A stretch of 64,000 bases of DNA from a virus (IMGVR_UViG_3300032397_000005:41444-105443); one strand, 5' to 3'. Positions 11,414-35,247 are shown, counted from the first letter of the stretch. Made by a program: numbers and translations. The notes: generated by a model from the sequence alone, not told the origin.

Positions 11414-12274
11414 GTGACGTTCCTCATCGACGGCTCCGGCTTCGCCAAGGCGGCCTTCGTGCCCGGTCAGCAGAGTGCCCTCGCCCACCGCTTCCTCTCC
11501 CGGGTCTTCCAGCTGAACCTGCGCGGGCGCGGCCGGCCAATCGTCGTGGCCTGGGACGCGCCGGACCACGTCTCCGGGCGCCGGGCCCGCTTCCCGGCCT
11601 ACAAGGCAAACCGCGGTCTCCGCCCAGATCCGTTCGGGGGCGAGTACGCGGAGCAGGTTGCGGAGCTCCGGTCCCTCCTCCCGTCCCTGGGCGTCCACCA
11701 GGCGCTCAGTCCAGGTTGGGAGGCGGACGACGTCCTGGCCACCCTGGCTCGATCCGCGCCGGGGGAGGTGCTCGTCCTGACGCGGGACCGGGACATGATC
11801 CAGCTCGTTGATGAGCGGGTCTCCGTCCTGCTCAAGGTGGGCTCGAGGGAGCACCTCCTCGGGGAGCGGGGCGCGGAGAAGTTCCTCGGCTTCTCACCGC
11901 ACGTCCACCGAGATTGGAAGGCGCTGGCGGGCGACTCCGGCGACGGCGTGCCCGGGATGCCGGGGATCGGGGAGAAGACGGCCACGGCGCTCCTCGAGTT
12001 CCGCCCCACGCTCGTTCCGGACCTCCTCGGGGGCTCCGTCTACTACGGGCCGAACGGGCTCCAGGAACTCGAGCCGCGGGTCCGGACCGCCTTCCTGGGA
12101 CTGCTCAAGCCGGAGGCGCGGGACCGACTCGAGCTGATGCGCTGGCTGGTCTCGCTTCACGAGGTCCCAATCCAAGTCCTGCGCGGGCGCCTGGACCTGG
12201 TGGAGGCGCGGACCTTCTTCTCCGCCTCGGGACTCCGGCTCCTTGGGTCTCGACTCCCGGAGTGGTCAAAATGA
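11414..12274 (+). CDS. 5'-3' exonuclease / flap endonuclease (PolI N-terminal family)
   Basis: LIDGS, VAWD, YKANR, EADDVLATLA, TRDRDMIQLV, ALAGDSGDGVPGMPGIGEKTA (HhH). Confidence 0.93.
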   Translation: MTFLIDGSGFAKAAFVPGQQSALAHRFLSRVFQLNLRGRGRPIVVAWDAPDHVSGRRARFPAYKANRGLRPDPFGGEYAEQVAELRSLLPSLGVHQALSPGWEADDVLATLARSAPGEVLVLTRDRDMIQLVDERVSVLLKVGSREHLLGERGAEKFLGFSPHVHRDWKALAGDSGDGVPGMPGIGEKTATALLEFRPTLVPDLLGGSVYYGPNGLQELEPRVRTAFLGLLKPEARDRLELMRWLVSLHEVPIQVLRGRLDLVEARTFFSASGLRLLGSRLPEWSK

Positions 12275-12597
12275 GCAACGTCTGGTTCGTCTACCTGGTC
12301 CGCGCGGCGGACGGTTCCCTCCACTGCGGGATCTCCACGGACGTCGAGCGGCGGGTCCGGGAGCACAACGAGGGCTGGCGCGGCGCCAAGTGCCTCCGGG
12401 GGAAGCGGCCGGTTTCCCTGGCCTGGCGGAGCGCGGGGATGACCAAGTCGGCCGCCCTCCGACTCGAGGCGCGCCTCGAGCCACTTCACCCGCACTGGAG
12501 CGAGCGCCTGGCCGCGGAGTGGGCGGAGGTCAACGACCGATGGGGAGGAGTGGAGGAGTGGAGGAGTGGAGGAGTGGAGGAGGTTCGCCGCCGTTGA
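12271..12597 (+). CDS. GIY-YIG nuclease-family protein (UPF0213-like)
   Basis: WFVYLVRAADGSLHCGISTDVERRVREHN..GAK.LRGKRPV...KSAALRLEARL; ATGA overlap with the exonuclease gene. Confidence 0.85.
   Translation: MSNVWFVYLVRAADGSLHCGISTDVERRVREHNEGWRGAKCLRGKRPVSLAWRSAGMTKSAALRLEARLEPLHPHWSERLAAEWAEVNDRWGGVEEWRSGGVEEVRRR
12544..12582 (+). repeat. (GGAGGAGT)n tandem repeat, ~4.9 copies
   Basis: Read directly; lies in the 3' end of the GIY-YIG gene. Confidence 0.9.
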
Positions 12598-12942: not shown

Positions 12943-12960
12943 CTGCCTACATGTAGGCAG
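12943..12960. promoter_or_regulatory. perfect 18-bp palindrome CTGCCTACATGTAGGCAG (putative protein-binding site)
   Basis: Self-complementary; related copies at 20469-20486 and 21804-21821. Confidence 0.55.
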
Positions 12961-13030
12961 GAGGGGGGTGGGGGGCGGTCCGGGGTCGGGGGGCGGGTCG
13001 CTCCGGGCGGGGCTGACTCGCGCCCCGGGC

Positions 13031-13147
13031 GGGACCCAAGTTGGGACCAACTTGTTATCGTTCAGAAACGGGACCCAAGTTGGGACCAACTTGTTATCGT
13101 TCAGAAACGGGACCCAAGTTGGGACCAACTTGTTATCGTTCAGAAAC
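13031..13147. repeat. 3 x 39-bp exact tandem repeat, each with an 8-bp inverted repeat
   Basis: Unit GGGACCCAAGTTGGGACCAACTTGTTATCGTTCAGAAAC at 13031, 13070 and 13109; contains CAAGTTGG-GA-CCAACTTG. Confidence 0.95.
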
Positions 13148-13183
13148 GGGGTTCAGAAATGGAGTCCCGGTTTAGGTCCAACG

Positions 13184-13402
13184 CTAGGCCAGTCTCTTGA
13201 CGCGGGCGACGTGACCGGACGCGTTCCGGACGCTCCGGGAGTACGCCCTTGGGGACCACCCCTCGGCGTCCACCTCCCGGACGACCCACATCGAGCCGAC
13301 GCGGGTCCCGGGCAGCCTCCCGTCTCGGATTGCGTACAGGACGCAGACGCGGGTGACGCCCCGCAGCGCGGCAACCTCGGACACCGACAGGAGCTTGTCC
13401 AA
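13184..13402 (-). CDS. excisionase-like HTH DNA-binding protein (HTH_17/MerR-type)
   Basis: LLSVSEVAALRGVTRVCVLYAIRDGRLPGTRVGSMWVV pattern. Confidence 0.85.
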   Translation of the reverse strand: MDKLLSVSEVAALRGVTRVCVLYAIRDGRLPGTRVGSMWVVREVDAEGWSPRAYSRSVRNASGHVARVKRLA

Positions 13403-13429: not shown

Positions 13430-13458
13430 ATCTTAGCGAACGAAAGGTCTCCCGTCCA
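13430..13458 (-). promoter_or_regulatory. putative promoter of the HTH gene
   Basis: Minus strand TGGACG-N17-TAAGAT, close to the hexamers of the array promoters. Confidence 0.55.
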
Positions 13459-13547: not shown

Positions 13548-14312
13548 TTGGCGCGGACGGATCGGTCCGCGTTCGCCCGGAGTGAGGCGTCCGTGGACTG
13601 GATCCTGCGGACGATGGAGGACCTGGTGGTCACGCTCCCCTCCGGTGAGAGGGTGGAGGCGGCCTTCCGGAGGCCGTCGACGTCCGGACCCACCTCGCTG
13701 GCCGCCTCCGTCCGGTCCTGGCGCGGGGCCACGGTCTCCCTGGGGGACGGTTTCATGACGCTCACCCTGGGTCGCGCGATCCTCCGCGTGAGGACGCGTC
13801 CGGTCTCGATCCAACGTCCCCAAGTGCCGGCGTACTTCCGGACGGGTTCCATCCACGTTGTCCTCGGGGATCCCGGGTGGATCCTCCTGCGCGTTGAGGG
13901 GCGTACGGTGGCGATCCTGCGGGCGGATCTGGCGCCGTGGGCGCCGGTTGTGCGCTTGGTGGTCCCGGATCCCGGGGTTGAGGCGCTGCTGAATGCGTCC
14001 GCCGGTCCGGCGCGTTTCCTCCCGGCGATTAGAACTGGTACCGGGGTGCTACTGTCCGGCGTTCGCTGGGTGAACGCGGGCGGGGCGGTGGTCCCGGTGG
14101 ACTTCCTGCGGGCGCTCCCGGTTGGGACGGTCGTCTCGGTGGCTGAAAACGTCCTGCGGGCACCCGGGTTTGGGGCGGTAACCGGAACGACGGACTTCCT
14201 GGCGTGCGTGGAGGAGGAGACCGGGGTGCTCCCGCCCTCCCGGACGTCCTACTGGACTGATCTTCTCCTCTTCTTATTTCCCTGGACATATTCTTTCTAC
14301 GTGGTAAGATGA
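13548..14312 (+). CDS. hypothetical protein (start uncertain, possibly degenerate)
   Basis: Long ORF whose last codons run through promoter repeat 1. Confidence 0.45.
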   Translation: MARTDRSAFARSEASVDWILRTMEDLVVTLPSGERVEAAFRRPSTSGPTSLAASVRSWRGATVSLGDGFMTLTLGRAILRVRTRPVSIQRPQVPAYFRTGSIHVVLGDPGWILLRVEGRTVAILRADLAPWAPVVRLVVPDPGVEALLNASAGPARFLPAIRTGTGVLLSGVRWVNAGGAVVPVDFLRALPVGTVVSVAENVLRAPGFGAVTGTTDFLACVEEETGVLPPSRTSYWTDLLLFLFPWTYSFYVVR

Positions 14313-14319
14313 AAGTATG
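14274..14319 (+). promoter_or_regulatory. cassette promoter repeat 1
   Basis: TGGACA(14283)-N16-TAAGAT(14305) with TG extension; ATG 6 nt downstream (14317). Confidence 0.85.
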
Positions 14320-14961
14320 ACAAACAACGCGGTGATTGAGACCACCTTCCAGCTCCTGAGCGTTCGCGACGTCCGCCCGGTGGACTGGTTCTCCGGTGAG
14401 CGGGTTGCAATCCCGGATGGTGAACTCCCGGAGTGCGCGCGCTGTGGGCGGCGCCACGCCGTGGTCTGGACCCTCCGGGAGCTCCCATCCGGCGGGACGG
14501 TGACGGTTGGCTCCGGTTGCGGGCCCAAGCTCCTGGCGGAGGGGCTCCTCCCGGGTGTGGACCTCCACGCGGTTGCGGCGGCCAAGAAGGTCGCGGCGGC
14601 GGAGGTCAGGGCGATCCGGCGCGTGGGCGCGGAGGTGCGGGCGCGGGAGCTGGCGGAGCTGGCCCGGGCGGCGGATCTGGCGGCGGGTGACCCACCGGCG
14701 CCGGTCTGGACCGCGGACGTGTACGGGCGGGCGGAGTTCGTGACCGTGACCGTCGGCGCCGTGGTCCGCTGCGCCGTCGCCCGCCAGCTGGACCGCGTGG
14801 CGCTCGAGCGGATGGCCGCCTCCCAGTGGCGGGACGAGGTCCGGATGGCCGCGGTCGTCGCCGCCGGCTGCCCGCGCGGCGCGCAGCACGCGGTGGTCCG
14901 CCTGGCGAACGCGGAGACCGAGGGGACCCTCCGGGACGCCGCGGCCGCCCTCCTCGGGTAG
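14317..14961 (+). CDS. hypothetical zinc-binding protein (leaderless)
   Basis: CARCGRRH...VGSGC. Confidence 0.75.
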   Translation: MTNNAVIETTFQLLSVRDVRPVDWFSGERVAIPDGELPECARCGRRHAVVWTLRELPSGGTVTVGSGCGPKLLAEGLLPGVDLHAVAAAKKVAAAEVRAIRRVGAEVRARELAELARAADLAAGDPPAPVWTADVYGRAEFVTVTVGAVVRCAVARQLDRVALERMAASQWRDEVRMAAVVAAGCPRGAQHAVVRLANAETEGTLRDAAAALLG

Positions 14962-15056
14962 TGAGAAAAAAAACGCACGCGGCTCGTCTTTTCCCTGTAC
15001 ATATTCTTTCTGCATGGTAAGATGAGAGTATGAGCAAGACGACGGAGAGCAAGATG
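14962..15056 (+). promoter_or_regulatory. cassette promoter-leader repeat 2
   Basis: A-tract..T-tract, TGTACA(14996)-N16-TAAGAT(15018), ATG 15030, leader MSKTTESK-M. Confidence 0.88.
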
Positions 15057-15233
15057 GCAAAGCGGAACGGACGCGAGGTGATGGAGCGGCTGGACGCGGA
15101 GCGGACGGACCGGATGCTCCGGGAGCTGGCCTCGGACCTGGCGGACCTCGTCGCCTCCGGTGACCTGACGGAGGCGGAGGCGAACGAGTGGATGACCCGG
15201 AAGCAGGACCAGTGGAACGGGGGTGACCGGTGA
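15030..15233 (+). CDS. hypothetical protein with MSKTTESK leader
   Basis: First gene of cassette 2. Confidence 0.75.
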   Translation: MSKTTESKMAKRNGREVMERLDAERTDRMLRELASDLADLVASGDLTEAEANEWMTRKQDQWNGGDR

Positions 15234-15469
15234 CCGCTAAGAAGGACCCGCGCGCCGCAATCCGCGCCGCGCTCGAGGTGGCGATGGCGATCGCGGATGC
15301 CATCCGGGAGCTGGGGACGGTCCCGTCGGGCGTGCTCTACGCCCAGGTGGCGTCGGTCCTGACGCTGGAGGACTTCCTCTGCGTCGTCCGGAACCTGAAG
15401 GAGGCGGGCGTCGTCGCGGAGGCGAACCACGTCCTCCGCTGGACCGGACCCGCGTGGGGTGGCAAGTGA
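15230..15469 (+). CDS. small winged-helix-like hypothetical protein
   Basis: IADAIRELGTVPSGVLYA...LKEAGVV...HVLRW; GTGA coupling. Confidence 0.7.
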   Translation: MTAKKDPRAAIRAALEVAMAIADAIRELGTVPSGVLYAQVASVLTLEDFLCVVRNLKEAGVVAEANHVLRWTGPAWGGK

Positions 15470-15855
15470 CCGCCCGGGTCTCCTGCGCGTCGGACGTCGC
15501 CGCGGTCTCCCGCCCGGTCTTCCGTCGCTGGCGGTGGGAGCAGGAGGCGTTCGTGGTCCTCCTCCTCAACGCGAAGCACGACGTCATCGGGCGCCCGGAG
15601 GTCTCGGCGGTCGGGACGGTCACCTCCGTCACGGTCCACCCGCGGGACGTCTTCCGGGCGGCGGTCCGCCGGAACGCGGCCGCGGTCATCGTCGCGCACT
15701 GCCACCCGAGCGGGGACGTGGCGCCCTCCGCGGACGACCTCCTCCTGACCCGGCGCCTCCGGGAGGCCGGGGAGCTTCTCGGGATCCCGCTCCTGGACCA
15801 CGTCATCGTCGGCCGGGACGCCCTCCGGTCCCTGGCGGAGACCGGGCAGCTGTGA
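15466..15855 (+). CDS. radC: RadC-like JAB/MPN domain protein
   Basis: EQEAFVVLLLNAKH, VHPRDVF, IVAHCHPSGDVAPSADD, LLGIPLLDHVIVG. Confidence 0.92.
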   Translation: MTARVSCASDVAAVSRPVFRRWRWEQEAFVVLLLNAKHDVIGRPEVSAVGTVTSVTVHPRDVFRAAVRRNAAAVIVAHCHPSGDVAPSADDLLLTRRLREAGELLGIPLLDHVIVGRDALRSLAETGQL

Positions 15856-15943
15856 AAAAACGCACGCGCCCTCATTTTTCCCTGGACAGATTCTTTCTGC
15901 ATGGTAAGATGAGAGTATGAGCAAGACGACGGAGAGCAAGATG
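15853..15943 (+). promoter_or_regulatory. cassette promoter-leader repeat 3
   Basis: TGGACA(15883)-N16-TAAGAT(15905), ATG 15917, leader MSKTTESK-M. Confidence 0.9.
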
Positions 15944-16096
15944 ACGAAGACGACGAAGACGGTCCACGTCCTGTCCCTCGGCGGGGAGCCCATCCACTTC
16001 GAGACGGCGGCCGCGGCGCGCCGGTTCCTGGACGCCCTCCCGGCCGGGCGACGCTGCGAGTGCGCCTACCTCGGGACGGTCGAGGTGCCCCGATGA
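15917..16096 (+). CDS. 59-aa hypothetical protein with MSKTTESK leader (not in ORF track)
   Basis: Translated by hand: MSKTTESKMTKTTKTVHVLSLGGEPIHFETAAAARRFLDALPAGRRCECAYLGTVEVPR*. Confidence 0.75.
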   Translation: MSKTTESKMTKTTKTVHVLSLGGEPIHFETAAAARRFLDALPAGRRCECAYLGTVEVPR

Positions 16097-16311
16097 CGCG
16101 CCCGGGCCGCTTCGAGGACACGACGATCTACATCTACTTCCGGCAGTTCCGCGTCCGCTGCGCGGTCACCGGCCGCGTGGAGCACGGGTGCGCGGCGGCC
16201 GGGCCGGCCAAGAAGATGCTTCGGGAGCTGGGCTGGGACTACCTCCCGCGCCAGGGCTGGGTGAGCCCGGAGGGTCTCGAGACGCTGAGGAAGGAGAGCA
16301 CCAATGGCTAG
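16093..16311 (+). CDS. hypothetical protein
   Basis: ATGA coupling with the previous gene. Confidence 0.65.
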   Translation: MTRPGRFEDTTIYIYFRQFRVRCAVTGRVEHGCAAAGPAKKMLRELGWDYLPRQGWVSPEGLETLRKESTNG

Positions 16312-16564
16312 GTTCAACGAGGGCGCGATGGCGGAGCTGCTGGCGGAGGTCCTCGGGACGCCGGAGGCGGCGGAGCTGGTGGAGGAGATCCTCGGCGCGC
16401 AGGCGGCGGTCTCCTCCACCTCCTTCCGGGAGGCGGGCGTCCTGACCAACAACGCGGGCCTGGTCGTTCGCGTCGGCCGCCGGGAGTTCCAGCTCACGGT
16501 GGTCGAGAGCACGCCCTCCTACCTCCGGGAGGACGACGGGGAGGATGACGATGACGATGAGTAG
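16304..16564 (+). CDS. hypothetical acidic protein
   Basis: RBS AGGAG; TSFREAGVLTNNAGLVVR; acidic tail EDDGEDDDDE. Confidence 0.75.
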   Translation: MARFNEGAMAELLAEVLGTPEAAELVEEILGAQAAVSSTSFREAGVLTNNAGLVVRVGRREFQLTVVESTPSYLREDDGEDDDDDE

Positions 16565-16829
16565 GCGCAGGCGGTTCCGCCCGGAGGGTCTCCTCCGCGT
16601 CCGCGTCCTCCAGGGCGCGCGCGGCTTCATCCAGAAGTTCCTCGAGCACGAGCTTTGGTACGGGGGAGCGGAGGAGCAGGGCTTCGCGGACGGCTCGACG
16701 GTCTGGCAGGTCTACTTCTGGACGCGGCTCGAGGCGGCGGACGTTCAGGAGCGGATCTGGGCGCAGAACGGCGGCGGCTGGTGTGAGGTCGTCGAGGTGG
16801 ACCCGGAGACCGGGGAGGTGGCGCGGTGA
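16557..16829 (+). CDS. hypothetical protein, paralog of 19191-19457
   Basis: Shared GFADGSTVWQVY...QERIWAQNGGGWCEV. Confidence 0.8.
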   Translation: MSRRRRFRPEGLLRVRVLQGARGFIQKFLEHELWYGGAEEQGFADGSTVWQVYFWTRLEAADVQERIWAQNGGGWCEVVEVDPETGEVAR

Positions 16830-17068
16830 GAGGTCGCGACCGGATCCCCTTCGAGCGGAGCGCTGACCTCCGTCTCCTCCTCCCCGGGGGCTGGGAGGCG
16901 TTCGCGCTCCCGCGGACCGAGTTGGCGGCGCTCGAGGAGACCTTCGGAGCCGGGGCGGGTCCGTGGATAGGTCAACAGGCGGAGGCATTCGGAGGCGGTG
17001 AAAAAAACGCACTGAGTTCATCTTTTCCTATGGACAGATTCTTTCTGTATGGTAAGATGAGAGTATGA
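16826..17068 (+). CDS. hypothetical protein (reads through repeat 4; 3' end may be frameshifted)
   Basis: GTGA coupling; C-terminus encoded by the promoter repeat. Confidence 0.45.
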   Translation: MRGRDRIPFERSADLRLLLPGGWEAFALPRTELAALEETFGAGAGPWIGQQAEAFGGGEKNALSSSFPMDRFFLYGKMRV

Positions 17069-17091
17069 ACAAGACGACGGAGAGCAAGATG
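16999..17091 (+). promoter_or_regulatory. cassette promoter-leader repeat 4
   Basis: TGGACA(17031)-N16-TAAGAT(17053), ATG 17065, leader MNKTTESK-M. Confidence 0.9.
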
Positions 17092-17271
17092 AACCGGATC
17101 GAGATCGTCTCCTCCCGCAGCGCCAACACCGTCTCCATCGTTGACGGCCTGACGGTCGTCAACATCATCCGGTTCCCCTCCGGGAATTTCTTCAAGACGT
17201 CCACCAAGTGCGCGTCCGTCGAGCGGGCGCGCGCGCTGGCCGCCTCCCTGGCGGCGGAGGAGGTGCTCTAG
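17065..17271 (+). CDS. hypothetical protein with MNKTTESK leader
   Basis: First gene of cassette 4. Confidence 0.75.
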   Translation: MNKTTESKMNRIEIVSSRSANTVSIVDGLTVVNIIRFPSGNFFKTSTKCASVERARALAASLAAEEVL

Positions 17272-17504
17272 TGGGGACCGCGCGCGTGAACTTCACCCTC
17301 CCCTCCTACCCGGGCGGGGAGGCGCGGCTGGACGAGATCGCGCACCGGCTGGTGGAGGACCTCCCGGCGCACATGCGGCGCGGCGCGGTCCTGGTGGTGG
17401 CTCAGGACTGGGACGGGCGGACGATCTGCTGGACCTCCCTCCGCTGCGGGGAGAGCCGGCCCAACCACCTGGCGTGGGCGCCCGCGTCCATGCCCTGGGA
17501 GTAG
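17271..17504 (+). CDS. hypothetical protein
   Basis: GTG overlapping the preceding TAG; RBS GGAGGT. Confidence 0.65.
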   Translation: MGTARVNFTLPSYPGGEARLDEIAHRLVEDLPAHMRRGAVLVVAQDWDGRTICWTSLRCGESRPNHLAWAPASMPWE

Positions 17505-17513
17505 GAGAGGACG

Positions 17514-17825
17514 ATGAAGGTCTCCCTGGAGTGCACGAGCCTGGCCGCCCTGGCGGCCGCCCTGACGGACCGGATGCTGAAGCACGCGGACTACGCGGCG
17601 GAGATGTGCGCGGACGGCGACGAGCCCGGGGACGCGGCGCGCTGGATCGCCTTCGCGCGGCTCCTCCGCCGCGGCGGGTCGGTGGAGGTCAACGCCTCCC
17701 TCGAGGCGGCGCTCGACTGCCTCATCGTCGAGCAGGAGACCCTCCCGCCCTGTCCCCGCTGCGGCGGGCAGCGGGACCGGGACCCGGGCGGGGAGGTCTA
17801 CTGCACCGAGTGTCACCCGGGGTAG
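17514..17825 (+). CDS. hypothetical protein with C-terminal zinc finger
   Basis: RBS AGGAGAGG; CPRC...CTEC. Confidence 0.75.
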   Translation: MKVSLECTSLAALAAALTDRMLKHADYAAEMCADGDEPGDAARWIAFARLLRRGGSVEVNASLEAALDCLIVEQETLPPCPRCGGQRDRDPGGEVYCTECHPG

Positions 17826-17913
17826 AAAAGCGCACGCGGCTCATCTTTTCTCTGGACATATTCTTTCTGCATGGTAAGATGAGAGTATGAGCAAGACGAC
17901 GGAGAGCAAGATG
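17823..17913 (+). promoter_or_regulatory. cassette promoter-leader repeat 5
   Basis: GAAAAG..CTTTTC, TGGACA(17853)-N16-TAAGAT(17875), ATG 17887, leader MSKTTESK-M. Confidence 0.9.
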
Positions 17914-18081
17914 AAGACCGCCACCGAGTACGGGATCCGCTGGTTCGAGTTCGACCGGAGCGACCGCCGGGTCCAGCGGGAGAAGTTCTTCAAGACGGAG
18001 AAGGCGCGCGCAGCCTTCGCGGCGCGGCTGGAGACCAAGGACAACTTCGCGGGTGACTTCACCTGGAGCGAGGAGGCGTAG
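17887..18081 (+). CDS. hypothetical protein with MSKTTESK leader
   Basis: First gene of cassette 5. Confidence 0.75.
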   Translation: MSKTTESKMKTATEYGIRWFEFDRSDRRVQREKFFKTEKARAAFAARLETKDNFAGDFTWSEEA

Positions 18082-18369
18082 ATGGCCAGCAAACGGAAGA
18101 AGGCGGCGCCGGAGTACCTCCCGCCGGCGGAGCGGATCCTGGCGGCGAAGTTCCTGGCGACCTCGAACCTGGGGCAGCCGGAGCCGCGGAGCGCGGACCC
18201 GTTGGCGAGCAGCTGGTGGACGGGCGCCCGTCCACGGTCCGTGGGCGGAGATGTGCGTCTCCTGCCACGCGCGCGTTGGGCTCGGTTTTGGGCTCGGGCG
18301 GGGTCAACTCTACCAGTTGGCTCCGGACGGAACCTGGGTGAAGGTGCGGCGAACGTGAGGGATCCCTAG
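18082..18369 (+). pseudogene. chimeric/frameshifted remnant: 5' paralog of 19447 fused to a zinc-finger gene fragment
   Basis: N-terminus matches 19447-19728 up to ADP; other frames then give GEQLVDGR / VHGPWAEMCVSCHARVGLGFGLGRGQLYQ. Confidence 0.55.
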
Positions 18370-18385
18370 GTGTTGGGAGGGCGCG

Positions 18386-18493
18386 AATAAAAAGCGCATG
18401 AGCTTATCTTTTTCCCCTGGACATATTGTTTCTATCTGGTAAGATGATAATATGAGAACCGAGAGAGAAACCCAGACCAAGGAGACGAAGATG
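18386..18493 (+). promoter_or_regulatory. cassette promoter-leader repeat 6 (subtype B)
   Basis: TGGACA(18418)-N16-TAAGAT(18440), GATAAT, ATG 18452, second SD-led ATG 18491. Confidence 0.88.
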
Positions 18494-18859
18494 AACTCCC
18501 AGACCGTGACCTTCCCCGTCCGTTCCATCCCACTGACCATCAGCGCCAGCGCGGCGGCGGCGCTCCTGAACGTCTCCACGGACTTCGAGCTGGTGGTGAG
18601 GTTCCTGGGCTACGGCTCGGACTACTCCCGCCTGATGACGGGTGCCGAGAAGGACGTCGTTCGCTACCTGGCGGACGGCTTCGGGACCCTCACCGCGGCG
18701 GACGCGGTGGAGACGGACGAGCACCAGGACCTCCTCCGCGACTGGAGCCACGTCCGCGACTCCTCGCCGGAGGCGGTGGCGAACATGGCGGCGGCCATCC
18801 GCGCCTTCTTCGCGGCGCACACGGTCCAGGATGAGGAGACCTTCCTGAGCGGTTACTAG
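18452..18859 (+). CDS. hypothetical protein
   Basis: First gene of cassette 6. Confidence 0.75.
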   Translation: MRTERETQTKETKMNSQTVTFPVRSIPLTISASAAAALLNVSTDFELVVRFLGYGSDYSRLMTGAEKDVVRYLADGFGTLTAADAVETDEHQDLLRDWSHVRDSSPEAVANMAAAIRAFFAAHTVQDEETFLSGY

Positions 18860-18866
18860 AGACGTC

Positions 18867-18895
18867 GACCCTGGGGGAGCTCCTCCCGGGGTCTT
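18867..18895 (+). terminator. GC-rich hairpin after gene (possible terminator or stabiliser)
   Basis: GACCCTGGGGG...CTCCCGGGGTC stem; weak U-tract. Confidence 0.4.
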
Positions 18896-18910
18896 GGGAG
18901 GAGGTGCGCG

Positions 18911-19129
18911 ATGCTGATTGAGGCGACGGATCCGCGGGAGGCGGCGCTGGGGATCCTCCGTCGGGACTTGACGGGGGACGCGCGGGGGGCGCTGGCGTAC
19001 CTCCTGAACAACGCCCTCTGCCCGCTGGTCTGCGATCTCTCGTTCGACGACGCGGCGCTCAACCTGGGGTACGTCCGGGACGCGGTCATGCAGCTCCGGG
19101 CGATGGTTCTGGAGATCGTTTCTGGGTGA
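18911..19129 (+). CDS. hypothetical protein
   Basis: RBS GGAGGAGGT. Confidence 0.7.
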   Translation: MLIEATDPREAALGILRRDLTGDARGALAYLLNNALCPLVCDLSFDDAALNLGYVRDAVMQLRAMVLEIVSG

Positions 19130-19199
19130 TAAAAACGCCTCCCCCCACTTTTCCCCTGGACATATTGTTTTTATCTGGTAAGATGATAATATGAGAACA
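19127..19199 (+). promoter_or_regulatory. cassette promoter repeat 7 (subtype B)
   Basis: TGGACA(19157)-N16-TAAGAT(19179), ATG 19191. Confidence 0.88.
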
Positions 19200-19457
19200 A
19201 AGAAAGCAACCAAGAAGCTCCTCAGGATTCGGATGGGTCAGGCGTTCCGCGGGTTCCTGCTGGGCGTTTGCCAGGAACTCCGGCTCGAGGTGGAGTCCAC
19301 GGGGTACGCGGAGGGGTCGACGGCGTGGCAGGTCTACGTGCGGACGGAGATCCCGGCGGACGTGATTCAGGAGACGATCTGGGCGCGCAACGGCGGCGGG
19401 TGGTGCGAGGTCAATGAGATCAACGGTCAGGACAACGGAGGGAGAGATGTCAAGTAA
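19191..19457 (+). CDS. hypothetical protein, paralog of 16557-16829
   Basis: GYAEGSTAWQVY...QETIWARNGGGWCEV. Confidence 0.8.
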   Translation: MRTKKATKKLLRIRMGQAFRGFLLGVCQELRLEVESTGYAEGSTAWQVYVRTEIPADVIQETIWARNGGGWCEVNEINGQDNGGRDVK

Positions 19458-19728
19458 GAAGAGAGCGAAGCAGCCGGTCTTTATCCCGGAGGCGGAGCGG
19501 GACCTGGCGGCAAAGTGGTTGGCCACCTCGAACCTGGGGCAGCCGGAGGCAGAGACGGCGGACCCAGAGGCAATTTTGCGCGCATGGGAGGCGTGCGTCC
19601 GGGCGCACGGGGACGAGGGGATCGACGTGATGCCGGAGTTCAGGGGTTGGAAGCGGGACATTGCGGCGGGTGACGCCTTCTGCGCGGAGGAGTGGGGGAA
19701 GTTCAAGGCTCAGAAGGAGGTGCGTTGA
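19447..19728 (+). CDS. hypothetical protein, paralog of the 18082 N-terminus
   Basis: AERDLAAKWLATSNLGQPE. Confidence 0.75.
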   Translation: MSSKKRAKQPVFIPEAERDLAAKWLATSNLGQPEAETADPEAILRAWEACVRAHGDEGIDVMPEFRGWKRDIAAGDAFCAEEWGKFKAQKEVR

Positions 19729-19945
19729 TGGATCACGCGGCGGTTGTGAGGGCGGCGATGATGTGGTGCGCGGAGCTCCTTGAGGCGGCGCTCGAGGGCC
19801 TGGTGACCCGGAGGCGAGGGAGGTCTTTCTGGCGGACGCTACGGGTCTGCGGGACCGCCAGGAGGTGGTCTTTGTGACGTACCTCATTCGGCACCAGATC
19901 TGCGAGCTCCGTGCCCGGGCGGATGTGATGGGGAAGAAGGTTTGA
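19728..19945 (+). pseudogene. small gene apparently frameshifted near 19800
   Basis: MDHAAVV...LEG continues most naturally in another frame as GDPEAREVFLADATGLRDRQEVVFVTYLIRHQICELRARADVMGKKV*. Confidence 0.45.
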
Positions 19946-19963
19946 CGGGTACCTCCTGATACG

Positions 19964-20057
19964 TGAAGAAAACGTCACCTCCCCTCATTTTTCCTCTGGA
20001 CAAATTGTTTCTATCTGGTAAGATGATAATATGAGAACCACGAAGGAGACGCAGATG
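19964..20057 (+). promoter_or_regulatory. cassette promoter-leader repeat 8 (subtype B)
   Basis: TGGACA(19997)-N16-TAAGAT(20019), ATG 20031, leader MRTTKETQ-M. Confidence 0.88.
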
Positions 20058-20249
20058 ACGAAGACGATGAAGGCGGTTCGGAAGTTCACGGCGGGCCTGG
20101 CGGTTGGGCGCTCTGACCTCAACCGGAACGGTTACGCCTGGATGGCGCGGAACGTGGCGACGCTCATCCGCCTCACCAAGGACGAGCCCAACTGGCTCCG
20201 CGGTTACCGCGCGGCGCTCGAGGACGCGCAGGACGGGGAGGTGCTTTGA
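20031..20249 (+). CDS. hypothetical protein
   Basis: First gene of cassette 8. Confidence 0.75.
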   Translation: MRTTKETQMTKTMKAVRKFTAGLAVGRSDLNRNGYAWMARNVATLIRLTKDEPNWLRGYRAALEDAQDGEVL

Positions 20250-20467
20250 TGCGGAAGAAGGGCGTGCGTGGCAGCGTGGTCTCCGCGCTGCGGCTCCTGC
20301 GGGACGCGCGGCTCCTCCTCCGCGGGGAGGTGGAGGCGGGTGAGTGGGGGGACGCGGACGCAATCGAGCTCTCCCAGCGCCTCGCGGAGGTGACCGCGGA
20401 GACGCTCACGCTGCGGCGGGAGCTGGCGTCCTGGTTCCTATTTGTCCGTCCGGCGGACATTGACTGA
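20249..20467 (+). CDS. hypothetical protein
   Basis: TGATG coupling; RBS GGAGGT. Confidence 0.65.
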   Translation: MRKKGVRGSVVSALRLLRDARLLLRGEVEAGEWGDADAIELSQRLAEVTAETLTLRRELASWFLFVRPADID

Positions 20468-20510
20468 TGCGCCTATATGTAGGCGCCTGACACTTTGGAG
20501 GAGGTGAAGG

Positions 20511-21754: not shown

Positions 21755-22502
21755 GCGCGAGCTGCTTGACGCGCGGCGCGCGCGGTTCCGCGGGGATTGG
21801 TTCTTGCTTATATGTAGGCAACTGGAGTGACGCGTCAATCACCTTCCCACCCTCCTCCACCGGTTGCGTGATGCGGCGGAGGACGGCGCCAACCGTTCCC
21901 TGGAGGCGTTTCTGGGGATCCGCTAGGTATGCCTGGAGACCGGTCACCTCCTTTGATAGGTGAACCTGGAGCTCGGAGATGGACATCGAGCGGATGTCCA
22001 CGTGCCCGTGGATCTGGAGCTCCCGGGCGGCGCGCTTGATGACCCCCAGCTCCTGCCCGACCTTGATGATCTGCTCCAGGATGCTGGACCGGGCCTTGAT
22101 CGCGGTGGTGAGTGCGGCAAACTGCTTCGACCCGCGGAAGATCTCCGCCATGTCCTGCAGTTCCTTACAGCAGAGCATCTGCTGCTCCCGGTACTCCGCA
22201 AACAGCAGCGTGGAGTCCGCGGAGTCCCACATGCGCCGGTATTCGTCTCGGCTCGTGCGCTCCACGCTCATCAGGCGCTGCAGGCTCCAGCCGGTTTCCT
22301 GGAGGATCTGGTCACGAGACCACATCAAGGAAATACAGGCTCTGTACTGAGTGATGTCGCGTCTATCTCGGCGGATCTCCTGTGATTCCGTTAGGTCTTG
22401 GATACCAAACTTGGCTAGGTTCCTAGTTCTGGCCTTGGCGCCTGCGCACCCGGACGCGACGTCCGAGAGTTCGAGTTCCTTGGCGTTTGAGTGCTGTGAC
22501 AT
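21747..22502 (-). CDS. putative terminase small subunit
   Basis: Adjacent to terL; HTH-like SRDQILQETGWSLQRL, helical body, C-terminal GHVDIRSMSISEL pattern; strong RBS. Confidence 0.55.
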   Translation of the reverse strand: MSQHSNAKELELSDVASGCAGAKARTRNLAKFGIQDLTESQEIRRDRRDITQYRACISLMWSRDQILQETGWSLQRLMSVERTSRDEYRRMWDSADSTLLFAEYREQQMLCCKELQDMAEIFRGSKQFAALTTAIKARSSILEQIIKVGQELGVIKRAARELQIHGHVDIRSMSISELQVHLSKEVTGLQAYLADPQKRLQGTVGAVLRRITQPVEEGGKVIDASLQLPTYKQEPIPAEPRAPRVKQLAPT

Positions 22503-33460: not shown

Positions 33461-33531
33461 TGGTAACCACCCACCCCGTCTCGGTCCTACCCTAGAATCA
33501 ATCGCTTGTTAAAATCTAAACGGAGAGTGAA

Positions 33532-35247
33532 ATGACCGTTTCCAGGCTTCGTCAGGAGCAGATGCACACGGAGGGGTCCGCCATCAACGACGCGTTGACC
33601 CCGACCGACCACGACGCAAACGCGGTGGACCTTGCGGACACCGTCAGTCACCTGGCCTCCCAGATTGCGGACATCACGGGGGAGGCCACCTGGGAAGCGG
33701 CTCCGGACGCCACGATTGCCGCGATTGTGGCCAAGACGTTCCTCGATGAGAAGTTGGCGGACCGGGAGCTCCAGCTGCTCACGGACATCACGATTGCGAA
33801 CGCGAAGAACTACAAGATTCTGGTCGTGGCCACGAATGAGTTGCCGGCGGGTGGGTTGAACAAGAAGGCGATTGCCACGACCGTGACGGGACTCGTGTCC
33901 GCGGAGCACGGTGGGAGCTTTGGCGCGGCACACTCCCTGCTGGAGATCGCCGGGGATAACGCGATCAACCCGGAGAACCTCTTGGCGGTGGTGGACGCCA
34001 GCACCGGTGACCCCATCTTCTCAGACGGGCGCATTGTCTGGGGTCTCCTCCAGCACGAGGCCGGCGCGACGGACGCGGCCGCGTTCACGGATACCACGCC
34101 GGAGCGGGCTCAGCTCTCCCTGGTGAGGGTGAACGCCACTCACGACGACCTCGAGGCGGCGGCCGTGGCGGACGTTGAGGACAAGGTCATCAACGTCGCC
34201 TTCACGGACCGGAAGTACCTGGATGACTGGACCCGGATGAGCTTCCTCCGGAGGTCCCCGTTCGTCGACGTGGGCGCCGGGGCGGTGGTCAACACCCTGA
34301 ACACGGCCATCGACAACCAGGGCGCAACGCCGGCCACTCAGGCCACGGCGGTCTACTGGCGCATCGCCGACGCCGTGGCGCTGGTCTTCGAGACATCCGA
34401 CGGGGGCGTGGACCTCCTCTCCCTCTCTCCGGCGGCGGCCGGGGACGCGGTGGCCATCAACTGCAACTCCCTGGACATCAACGTCGGTGCCAGCGGAACC
34501 GCGGACGTTGACAACGGGATCACAGTCGACTCCGGCGGGACCCCGATCAACCTGGGCGTGACTGCGGGGCAGATCGACGCGGGGGCGGCGGGCATCACGG
34601 TCCTTTCCTCCGGGGCGGTGGCCAGGTTGGACGGCGTGGGCGTGACCCTGGACGCAAACGCGGGGAACGTGGTGGCGGACGGCGTGGTCCTGGACGTGGA
34701 CGTGACGGACGCCTCCCACATCATCCAGGCGGCAAACTCCGCGGACGCCAAGTCGCTCACGATTGCGTCGCGGAACGCCGGGGCGGGAGTTGGGCACCTG
34801 GTGCTTGAGGCGGATGAGAACATCACGTTTGAGACCAAGAATCAGGCGGCGGCGCTCCCGCTGGACGACGACACCGCCGGGGCGATCTCCGCGCTGGCGG
34901 GCGGGCCCCACGCGTCCATCGCGGCGGCCATCAAGTACGCCATACTGAGCGGAGGCGTTGGTCTGACGGGGGCCTTCCTGTTCGTCTCCGGCGGCGCGTA
35001 CGCCATGGGAGCCAACGTCCCGGCGGCCACGTTCGACCAGACCGGGTACACGATGACAATGGGTTCCGGCGGGGCGGTGTCCGCGACGATGATGGTGTTC
35101 CTCAACGGGCGGCTCCTCCGTGGAGGGGCGGCCACTGGTACCGGGGACGTCTACCCGGGGACCACACCCGCTTCTGGGGACGTGAAGTTCGACTTCCCCA
35201 AGGGCATCAAGACGGGAGACATCATCCTGTCGCTTGGGTTCTCTTAG
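33532..35247 (+). CDS. putative virion structural (fibre/decoration) protein
   Basis: A/G/T/D/V-rich; C-terminal MVFLNGRLL...GDV motif; located in the structural operon. Confidence 0.7.
   Translation: MTVSRLRQEQMHTEGSAINDALTPTDHDANAVDLADTVSHLASQIADITGEATWEAAPDATIAAIVAKTFLDEKLADRELQLLTDITIANAKNYKILVVATNELPAGGLNKKAIATTVTGLVSAEHGGSFGAAHSLLEIAGDNAINPENLLAVVDASTGDPIFSDGRIVWGLLQHEAGATDAAAFTDTTPERAQLSLVRVNATHDDLEAAAVADVEDKVINVAFTDRKYLDDWTRMSFLRRSPFVDVGAGAVVNTLNTAIDNQGATPATQATAVYWRIADAVALVFETSDGGVDLLSLSPAAAGDAVAINCNSLDINVGASGTADVDNGITVDSGGTPINLGVTAGQIDAGAAGITVLSSGAVARLDGVGVTLDANAGNVVADGVVLDVDVTDASHIIQAANSADAKSLTIASRNAGAGVGHLVLEADENITFETKNQAAALPLDDDTAGAISALAGGPHASIAAAIKYAILSGGVGLTGAFLFVSGGAYAMGANVPAATFDQTGYTMTMGSGGAVSATMMVFLNGRLLRGGAATGTGDVYPGTTPASGDVKFDFPKGIKTGDIILSLGFS

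Follow-up and report, generated by a model that had tools for sequence, protein, structure and literature searches.

Why should a phage carry the same promoter eight times in a row, each copy at the head of a few small genes, and what does the repetition mean for the genes between the copies? The question is raised by a stretch of 64,000 nucleotides (the window), which comprises bases 41444-105443 of the 105,443-bp IMG/VR virus record IMGVR_UViG_3300032397_000005, rated complete by CheckV. Between window positions 14274 and 20467, a promoter-leader repeat separates an array of gene cassettes. We consider it likely that a single portable expression unit is present here in eight copies, and that these also serve as patches of homology through which the cassettes are shuffled.

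The core of the repeat, TGGACA-N16-TAAGAT, matched the window exactly seven times (at 14283, 15883, 17031, 17853, 18418, 19157 and 19997), against an expected count of 0.02, and none of 100 shuffled sequences reached seven. In copy 2, the −35 hexamer (at 14996) was TGTACA. The longer −10/ATG motif TGGTAAGATGANANTATG occurred in exactly eight copies, all on the plus strand (0.06 expected), and a consensus promoter scan returned eight sites in 11 kb, compared to 0.7 in shuffled sequences. The ATGs of the repeats were located at 14317, 15030, 15917, 17065, 17887, 18452, 19191 and 20031, with a spacing of 565-1148 bp. A preliminary description of the window had listed eight same-strand copies with these ATGs and this spacing, each heading one to five small genes, and both statements were reproduced, the latter in our map of open reading frames (ORFs).

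According to the alignment, the repeat is ~95-105 bp long and extends from the upstream stop codon and an A-run through a second in-frame ATG. From 5′ to 3′, the order is stop codon, A-run, CGCAC/C-rich stretch, T-run, −35, a conserved 16-bp spacer, TGnTAAGAT, 6 nt and ATG, followed by an A-rich leader and the second ATG with GGAG before it. The A-run at about −60 and the T-run directly 5′ of the −35 were present in seven of the eight copies; repeat 1 has no upstream A-run because it is sited in the 3′ end of an ORF (13548-14312). The stop codons at 14961, 15855, 17825 and 19129, described earlier as abutting the next repeat, adjoin the A-run that opens it. The two subtypes proposed to occur in blocks are also real, subtype A in copies 2-5 and subtype B in copies 6-8, with copies 4 and 7 deviating by one base each from the strings quoted for them. 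The repeats are as follows:

Repeat 1: 14274-14319, plus strand; T-run, −35 TGGACA at 14283, TG-extended −10 TAAGAT at 14305-14310, ATG at 14317.
Repeat 2 (subtype A): 14963-15056, plus strand; A-run, T-run, −35 TGTACA at 14996, −10 at 15018-15023, ATG at 15030, leader MSKTTESK, Shine-Dalgarno (SD)-led second ATG at 15054.
Repeat 3 (subtype A): 15852-15943, plus strand; −35 at 15883, −10 at 15905-15910, ATG at 15917, second ATG at 15941.
Repeat 4 (subtype A): 16999-17091, plus strand; −35 at 17031, −10 at 17053-17058, ATG at 17065, second ATG at 17089.
Repeat 5 (subtype A): 17823-17913, plus strand; −35 at 17853, −10 at 17875-17880, ATG at 17887, second ATG at 17911.
Repeat 6 (subtype B): 18386-18493, plus strand; −35 at 18418, −10 at 18440-18445, ATG at 18452, second ATG at 18491.
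Repeat 7 (subtype B): 19127-19235, plus strand; −35 at 19157, −10 at 19179-19184, ATG at 19191.
Repeat 8 (subtype B): 19963-20057, plus strand; −35 at 19997, −10 at 20019-20024, ATG at 20031, second ATG at 20055.

The whole genome contains ten copies, all on the plus strand and none in the 44-kb structural module; a profile search of the genome found no further copies and no relics. Eight of the ten lie within 6.2 kb bounded by conserved flanks. The remaining two fall outside the window. Copy 9, at genome position 17718, precedes the gene of a 497-aa UvrD-like helicase, and copy 10, at 19294, leads a unit comprising a 76-aa ORF and the gene of a 240-aa serine recombinase; this arrangement (genome 17718-20277) is conserved in the related genomes G001 and G004. 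The promoter is thus not specific to accessory cassettes, as it also drives, by position, the helicase gene. Apart from these copies, the only other extended −10-like site of the genome in an AT-rich context was TGTTAAAAT at window 33507-33515, 16 nt upstream of the ATG of a 571-aa ORF (33532-35247) in the structural module.

The position of the start codon is equally regular. In all intact copies checked (in G000, the genome of the window, and in G001, G002 and G004), the −10 is followed at a distance of 6 nt (5 nt in one case) by an ATG or GTG that is in frame with an ORF; one extra TGKACA-type match in G001 and a truncated relic in the metagenome contig L022, which has no start codon, were excluded from this check. 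The units of G002 carry GTG at the predicted +1. The leader between this codon and the second, SD-led start measures 6 to 17 codons, with at least ten different lengths, all of them multiples of three (chance ≈ (1/3)^9). As the leader always consists of whole codons, it is most simply read as translated, and hence as initiated at a 5′-terminal start codon. Moreover, the leader of cassette 7 aligns with the N-terminus of a paralogous ORF (16545-16829), which indicates that the first ATG is the real start there. The anatomy of the unit, its copy number and the conservation of its frame are direct observations.

We also considered whether the upstream half of the repeat is a terminator or another stem-loop, and rejected this reading on the basis of folding and a terminator scan. 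No shared helix emerged when the 61 nt preceding each of seven copies were folded (z-scores from −2.5 to +1.9), and no terminator was found at the unit borders. We therefore read the upstream half as an UP-like region of A/T tracts. A perfect 18-bp palindrome (20469-20486) lies directly 3′ of the last stop codon of the array and is a candidate terminator or operator closing it. It belongs to a set of three near-identical 18-bp palindromes with the core GCYTAYATGTAGGC, all intergenic; the other two are located upstream of the variable region (12943-12960) and ahead of the putative small-terminase/TerL genes (21804-21821). We estimate that ~0.01 occurrences of such a 12-base pattern would arise by chance in 105 kb; the searched parts of G001 and G002 did not contain the pattern.

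Taken as an expression device, the unit would thus provide an A/T-tract UP-like region and a promoter of the host sigma-70/sigma-A type (TGGACA, 16 bp, TGnTAAGAT). Transcription would start at the A of the ATG located 6 nt past the −10, giving a leaderless mRNA. The A-rich translated leader of 6-17 codons would usually end in the in-frame SD-led ATG, so that the first gene could be started either way. The units would act in series, with no terminators between them and the 18-bp palindrome ending the row. A search of the phage genome for a sigma-70 region 2 domain was negative, which is consistent with the use of the host holoenzyme.

The cassettes of the window are as follows:

Cassette 1: 14317-14961, plus strand; one 214-aa ORF with a CxxC..GxGC motif, no family match.
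Cassette 2: 15030-15855, plus strand; ORFs of 67, 79 and 133 aa, the last (15454-15855) a RadC-like JAB protein.
Cassette 3: 15917-17002, plus strand; ORFs of 59, 83, 86 and 94 aa and a doubtful 80-aa ORF running into repeat 4, no family matches.
Cassette 4: 17065-17825, plus strand; ORFs of 68, 98 and 103 aa, the last with CxxC...CxxC, no family matches.
Cassette 5: 17887-18369, plus strand; ORFs of 64 and 95 aa, the second cut short by a deletion at 18193-18201.
Cassette 6: 18452-19129, plus strand; ORFs of 135 and 72 aa, no family matches.
Cassette 7: 19191-19877, plus strand; ORFs of 88 and 104 aa (paralogues of ORFs in other cassettes) and a 61-aa ORF.
Cassette 8: 20031-20467, plus strand; ORFs of 72 and 73 aa, the first with an 80%-identical, promoter-led orthologue in G001.

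Scanning metagenomes with the promoter pattern gave 21 contigs. Ten of them (L025, L026, L028, L030-L032, L035, L036, L040 and L041) were unrelated chance matches and were dropped; the remaining 11, from two sediment projects, are variants of the array, 79-100% identical. Cassette maps and block alignments showed that they differ by insertion, loss and replacement of genes. In L027, 421 bp of unrelated DNA (L027:1620-2040, plus orientation) takes the place of the cassette-1 gene (window 14368-14994), and homology restarts exactly at the CC/TGTACA junction of repeat 2. This segment looks like foreign DNA; its G+C content is seemingly lower than that of the surroundings, and it has its own SD-led small ORF. 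The same contig has a 276-bp deletion (16596-16872) joined at 9 nt of microhomology. L024, L033 and L023 have the first gene of cassette 2 swapped, starting where the shared leader ends and stopping at the gene boundary, and the segment 5′ of repeat 4 replaced by a homologue of the 18911-19129 gene. In L022, the gene that opens cassette 2 is again a different one, and two copies of repeat 3 flank an additional promoter-to-promoter unit. Within this unit, there is a truncated subtype-B promoter that ends right after TAAGATG. L022 has also lost repeat 4, together with four genes and the first gene of cassette 4, through a replacement.

Further variation was found around the later cassettes. In L029 and L038, 700 bp with a full-length paralogue and an extra gene stand in place of 185 bp in the window, and the right end of the difference is the first base of repeat 6. 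At the same place, L037 and L034 have a gene of up to 429 aa (start uncertain; L037:987-2276) with a sub-threshold SprT-like match. The deletion in cassette 5 (18193-18201), defined relative to L042 and L029, involved 8-9 nt of microhomology. L042 is without 188 bp including repeat 8, and L033 contains another unit upstream, and 5.1 kb in place of 1.9 kb in the window. Nine of the 19 distinct breakpoints fell in the repeats, which make up 15% of the array (binomial p = 8e-4).

The repeat copies themselves bear marks of exchange. Repeat 5 of L029 carries the two linked variants of repeat 2 (cccTGTACA). Repeat 6 is of subtype B in the window, but L038, L037 and L034 have subtype A at this position, and L042 has a chimera. 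Copy 8 and the helicase copy, copy 9, lie 44 kb apart and yet are perfectly identical over 53 nt, whereas the orthologues of copy 9 in G001 and G004 are of another type. Copies were more alike within a genome (0.81 in G002, 0.67 in G000) than between genomes (0.50-0.57). Identity to the window also changes from cassette to cassette (99.4, 94.1 and 100% in L038; 99.0 and 90.6% in L023), and the cassette 6 alleles of the variants are 94% and ~80% identical, while the neighbouring cassettes are 98-100% identical. The promoter relics and conversion tracts imply that the copies recombine.

These marks bear on a first alternative, an ordinary early operon with many promoters, where selection for a strong promoter keeps the repeats alike and genes turn over by illegitimate recombination and deletion, the repeats not being causal. 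Such an operon would readily accommodate the breakpoints outside the repeats, among them the intragenic deletions, of which two of three occurred at 8-9 nt microhomology, and also the two replication-module copies, which head conserved genes at fixed positions in G000, G001 and G004. It leaves unexplained, however, the enrichment of breakpoints in the repeats, the transfer of linked variants between copies (repeat 5 of L029, copies 8 and 9), and the relic of a promoter within a cassette. Furthermore, the within-genome likeness extends to the spacer and the leader, which promoter function does not constrain. On balance, we regard this explanation as unlikely.

Several points weigh against the portable, shuffling unit. 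Ten of the 19 breakpoints lie outside the repeats, at gene boundaries or inside genes (most within 25 nt of a gene boundary, the rest intragenic deletions), so recombination between repeats is not the sole route. The breakpoints were taken from the ends of BLAST high-scoring pairs and are accurate to a few bases. The variants are contigs assembled from short metagenome reads, and assemblers can mis-join strains at repeats of ~100 bp; events with both ends in repeats, as well as the mosaic identity, may therefore be partly chimeric. The events that can be relied on are those anchored at one end in unique sequence and those found in two samples. Promoter activity, the transcription start, the use of host RNA polymerase (RNAP) and early timing are predictions. 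The spacer between −35 and −10 keeps its TTCTT motif even in G001 and G002; as RNAP alone does not need a conserved spacer, a role in binding a regulator is also possible. Finally, relatives of the RadC-like protein, at most 56% identical, are scattered across many phyla (185k genomes searched) and thus give no clue to the host.

Regarding assembly, the ends in unique sequence, the junctions recurring across samples (L024 with L033, L023 with L024, L029 with L038, and L037 with L034), and the relic promoter and conversion tracts inside contigs argue against a pure artefact. Gain, loss and shuffling by recombination between repeats, as put forward in the preliminary description, are supported in part: the turnover, the breakpoints in repeats, the relics and the conversion speak for it, and about half of the breakpoints point to other routes as well.

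The conserved spacer raises a second alternative, in which the repeat is mainly an operator: a phage DNA-binding protein, e.g. the candidate HTH_17 protein, would switch the promoter class, and its binding would conserve the sequence. The motif (A/G)(T/G)TTCTT is indeed kept in G000, G001 and G002 while other intergenic DNA has diverged. An HTH_17 gene immediately precedes the first promoter in both G001 and L033, and in G002 it lies within the array; in the window, it is 0.9 kb upstream and on the opposite strand. On the other hand, visual inspection of the repeat showed no dyad symmetry (no search for inverted repeats was run), and an operator does not account for the breakpoints and conversion tracts. 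We find this explanation somewhat less probable than the multi-promoter operon; its binding step is putative, and it is compatible with the shuffling unit rather than exclusive of it. The HTH_17 (excisionase-like) gene of the window (13184-13402, minus strand) is preceded at 13430-13458 by TGGACG-N17-TAAGAT, a look-alike of the array promoter, and its 53%-identical homologues in L033 and G001 are on the plus strand. The protein may be a regulator, and its segment may be inverted in the window.

The serine recombinase of the copy 10 unit suggests a third alternative, a site-specific platform, where this enzyme, itself expressed from copy 10, would cut and rejoin a fixed site in the repeats and thereby move cassettes. 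The 240-aa ORF (genome 19555-20277) has a Resolvase domain (PF00239 at 1.2e-38) and a partial Recombinase domain, and it is conserved in G001 and G004. If true, this would be a site-specific cassette platform in a lytic-type phage, with a promoter and a start codon in each cassette. A fixed site is nevertheless difficult to reconcile with breakpoints at four or more positions in the repeat (the A-run edge, 5′ of the −35, after the −10, and the leader end). No inverted half-sites were seen by eye in the repeats (no tool search was made), and G001 has the recombinase yet only a single unit at the array site. We therefore consider this platform very improbable. As another job for the enzyme, we looked for an invertible segment and found only weak inverted repeats.

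Returning to the portable unit, the ~100-bp repeats would act as homology patches, with homologous recombination and gene conversion between copies. The exchange could occur within a genome or concatemer and between co-infecting relatives; it would add, remove or replace promoter-to-promoter segments and homogenise the promoters. Deletions at microhomology and junctions at gene boundaries would further erode and remodel the cassettes, and the outcome would be a hyperplastic accessory region.

More distant relatives fit into this picture. Searches with TerL led to G001 (105,878 bp, TerL 78% identical in amino acids) and G002 (a 39-kb fragment, TerL 72%). G001 has two promoter copies at the helicase/recombinase locus and one at the array site. 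The latter is the counterpart of repeat 8, the only unit conserved there, and is followed by the orthologue of the gene that opens cassette 8. At the syntenic site, G002 has five copies, whose genes have no detectable similarity to those of the window; the last unit (L018:7675-8484) contains a gene for a PAPS-reductase-domain protein. The flanks are conserved in the relatives, with a FEN-type exonuclease on the 5′ side and the terminase on the 3′ side. The outcome that the preliminary description had named as evidence to the contrary, the same genes in the same order in relatives, was not seen, as G001, G002 and the metagenome variants all differ.

The genome has a G+C content of ~65%, and nearly all its genes are on the plus strand. 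By annotation, the replication module contains DEAD and DnaB helicases, the UvrD-like helicase, PolB and an SMC/SbcC-like protein. The nucleotide-metabolism module, with a class II ribonucleotide reductase and ThyX, is followed by a 5′-3′ exonuclease (FEN-type) and then by the array, which thus lies between these genes and the terminase. The structural module 3′ of the array includes a TerL-type protein (its tblastn matches are annotated as large terminase), a portal, an XkdF-type protease and a minor-tail/tape-measure protein. In tblastn, no sequenced phage isolate has a TerL more than ~25% identical to this one, and therefore the lineage is uncultured; no T4-like phage was among the best TerL matches listed. 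Judging from the tape-measure, portal and XkdF protease genes, the source is a tailed, siphovirus-like uncultured phage with a high-GC genome of 105 kb. The array had no match among 50,697 phage records (blastn), and Rfam and tRNA scans of the window found nothing.

At the upstream border of the variable region, window 12271-12597 encodes a 108-aa GIY-YIG domain protein. The 3′ end of its gene contains 4.9 copies of GGAGGAGT (12544-12582), and the homology of L033 ends within the gene, at 12468. A gene-poor stretch upstream of the array (13030-13150) contains 3.1 perfect tandem copies of a 39-bp unit, each with a hairpin of 7-bp stem, CAAGTTGGGACCAACTTG; these are candidate iterons, an origin or protein-binding sites.

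As for the cassette genes, searches of all array ORFs against Pfam and PHROGs gave a family match for one of ~22, the RadC-like JAB domain of 15454-15855 (phrog_10276). In the ESM Atlas, the 214-aa and 135-aa ORFs matched viral ‘hypothetical’ clusters or nothing. Two pairs of paralogues occupy different cassettes and different positions within them, 16545-16829 and 19191-19457 (44% identity), and 18082-18369 and 19414-19728 (46% identity). A role of the array genes in host takeover or counter-defence is a guess.

To our knowledge, modular shuffling mediated by promoters has been documented experimentally only in T4-type myoviruses, and we found no description of a leaderless repeated-promoter array in non-T4 phages in the literature searched. 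The present array would extend the same shuffling logic to a siphovirus-like lineage that is uncultured, high in G+C and unrelated to these myoviruses, and its build differs in having a leaderless start, a back-up SD-led start and no terminator hairpin. Such a design would let captured genes be transcribed and translated at once, and could be the means by which phages hold a rapidly changing stock of small accessory genes ready for expression. The natural variants are a ready set of alleles for testing recombination at promoters, and the unit, being compact, is a candidate part for expression in high-GC hosts.

The closest described system is that of the promoter-early stem-loop (PeSL) cassettes of T4-type phages, in which a sigma-70-like early promoter is combined with an AT-rich upstream region and a terminator stem-loop (Arbiol et al. 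2010, PMC2839356; Comeau et al. 2014, PMC4122927). PeSLs are concentrated among the ORFans of hyperplastic regions, mediate indels and replacements by homologous recombination, and form mini-circles (PMC2839356; PMC4122927). Our array resembles them in its repeated motif with a strong sigma-70-type consensus (eight array copies, ten in the genome), the AT-rich upstream region with an A-run and a T-run, and the concentration in a variable ORFan region. Likewise, the motif marks the ends of indels and replacements that distinguish close relatives, here in short-read assemblies, and no dedicated integrase is needed, with homologous recombination as the proposed mechanism. Unlike PeSLs, our unit has no consistent stem-loop or terminator, and it reaches into the coding region, where the start codon at the predicted +1 is followed by a translated leader and an in-frame, SD-led second ATG. 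Moreover, one unit here heads one to five genes, and the carrier is a 65% G+C siphovirus-like lineage and not a T4-type myovirus.

An integron was also considered and rejected. The likeness consists in a same-strand row of small exchangeable gene units that vary between close relatives. However, exchange in the array seems to be driven by homology rather than site-specific, and each unit has its own promoter instead of a single common Pc. No attC-like hairpin was found in the 61 nt folded for each of seven copies, and PF00589, the domain of IntI-type tyrosine recombinases, had no match in the whole genome, with positive controls. The earlier label ‘integron-like’ is thus an analogy only. Its companion, ‘integrase-free’, is correct for tyrosine integrases but overlooks the serine recombinase, although no evidence ties this enzyme to the repeats.

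Many strong early promoters are also found in SPO1 genes 37-60, in the pre-early and early regions of T5, and among the T4 early promoters, where timing and host shut-off were demonstrated experimentally. There, as in our array, small unknown genes on one strand follow near-consensus promoters of the host-RNAP type with UP-like A/T tracts. Unlike those of our array, their promoters are not known to be fused to a start codon. In terms of the start codon, a parallel is provided by the leaderless units of Actinobacteria and Deinococcus-Thermus, where a −10 TANNNT located 6-7 nt 5′ of ATG or GTG sets the start of both transcription and translation. Our units agree with these in having ATG or GTG at the predicted +1, 6 nt (once 5) after the −10, with GTG in G002. 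They differ in that a second in-frame SD-led start is built in, and the whole unit is repeated and mobile.

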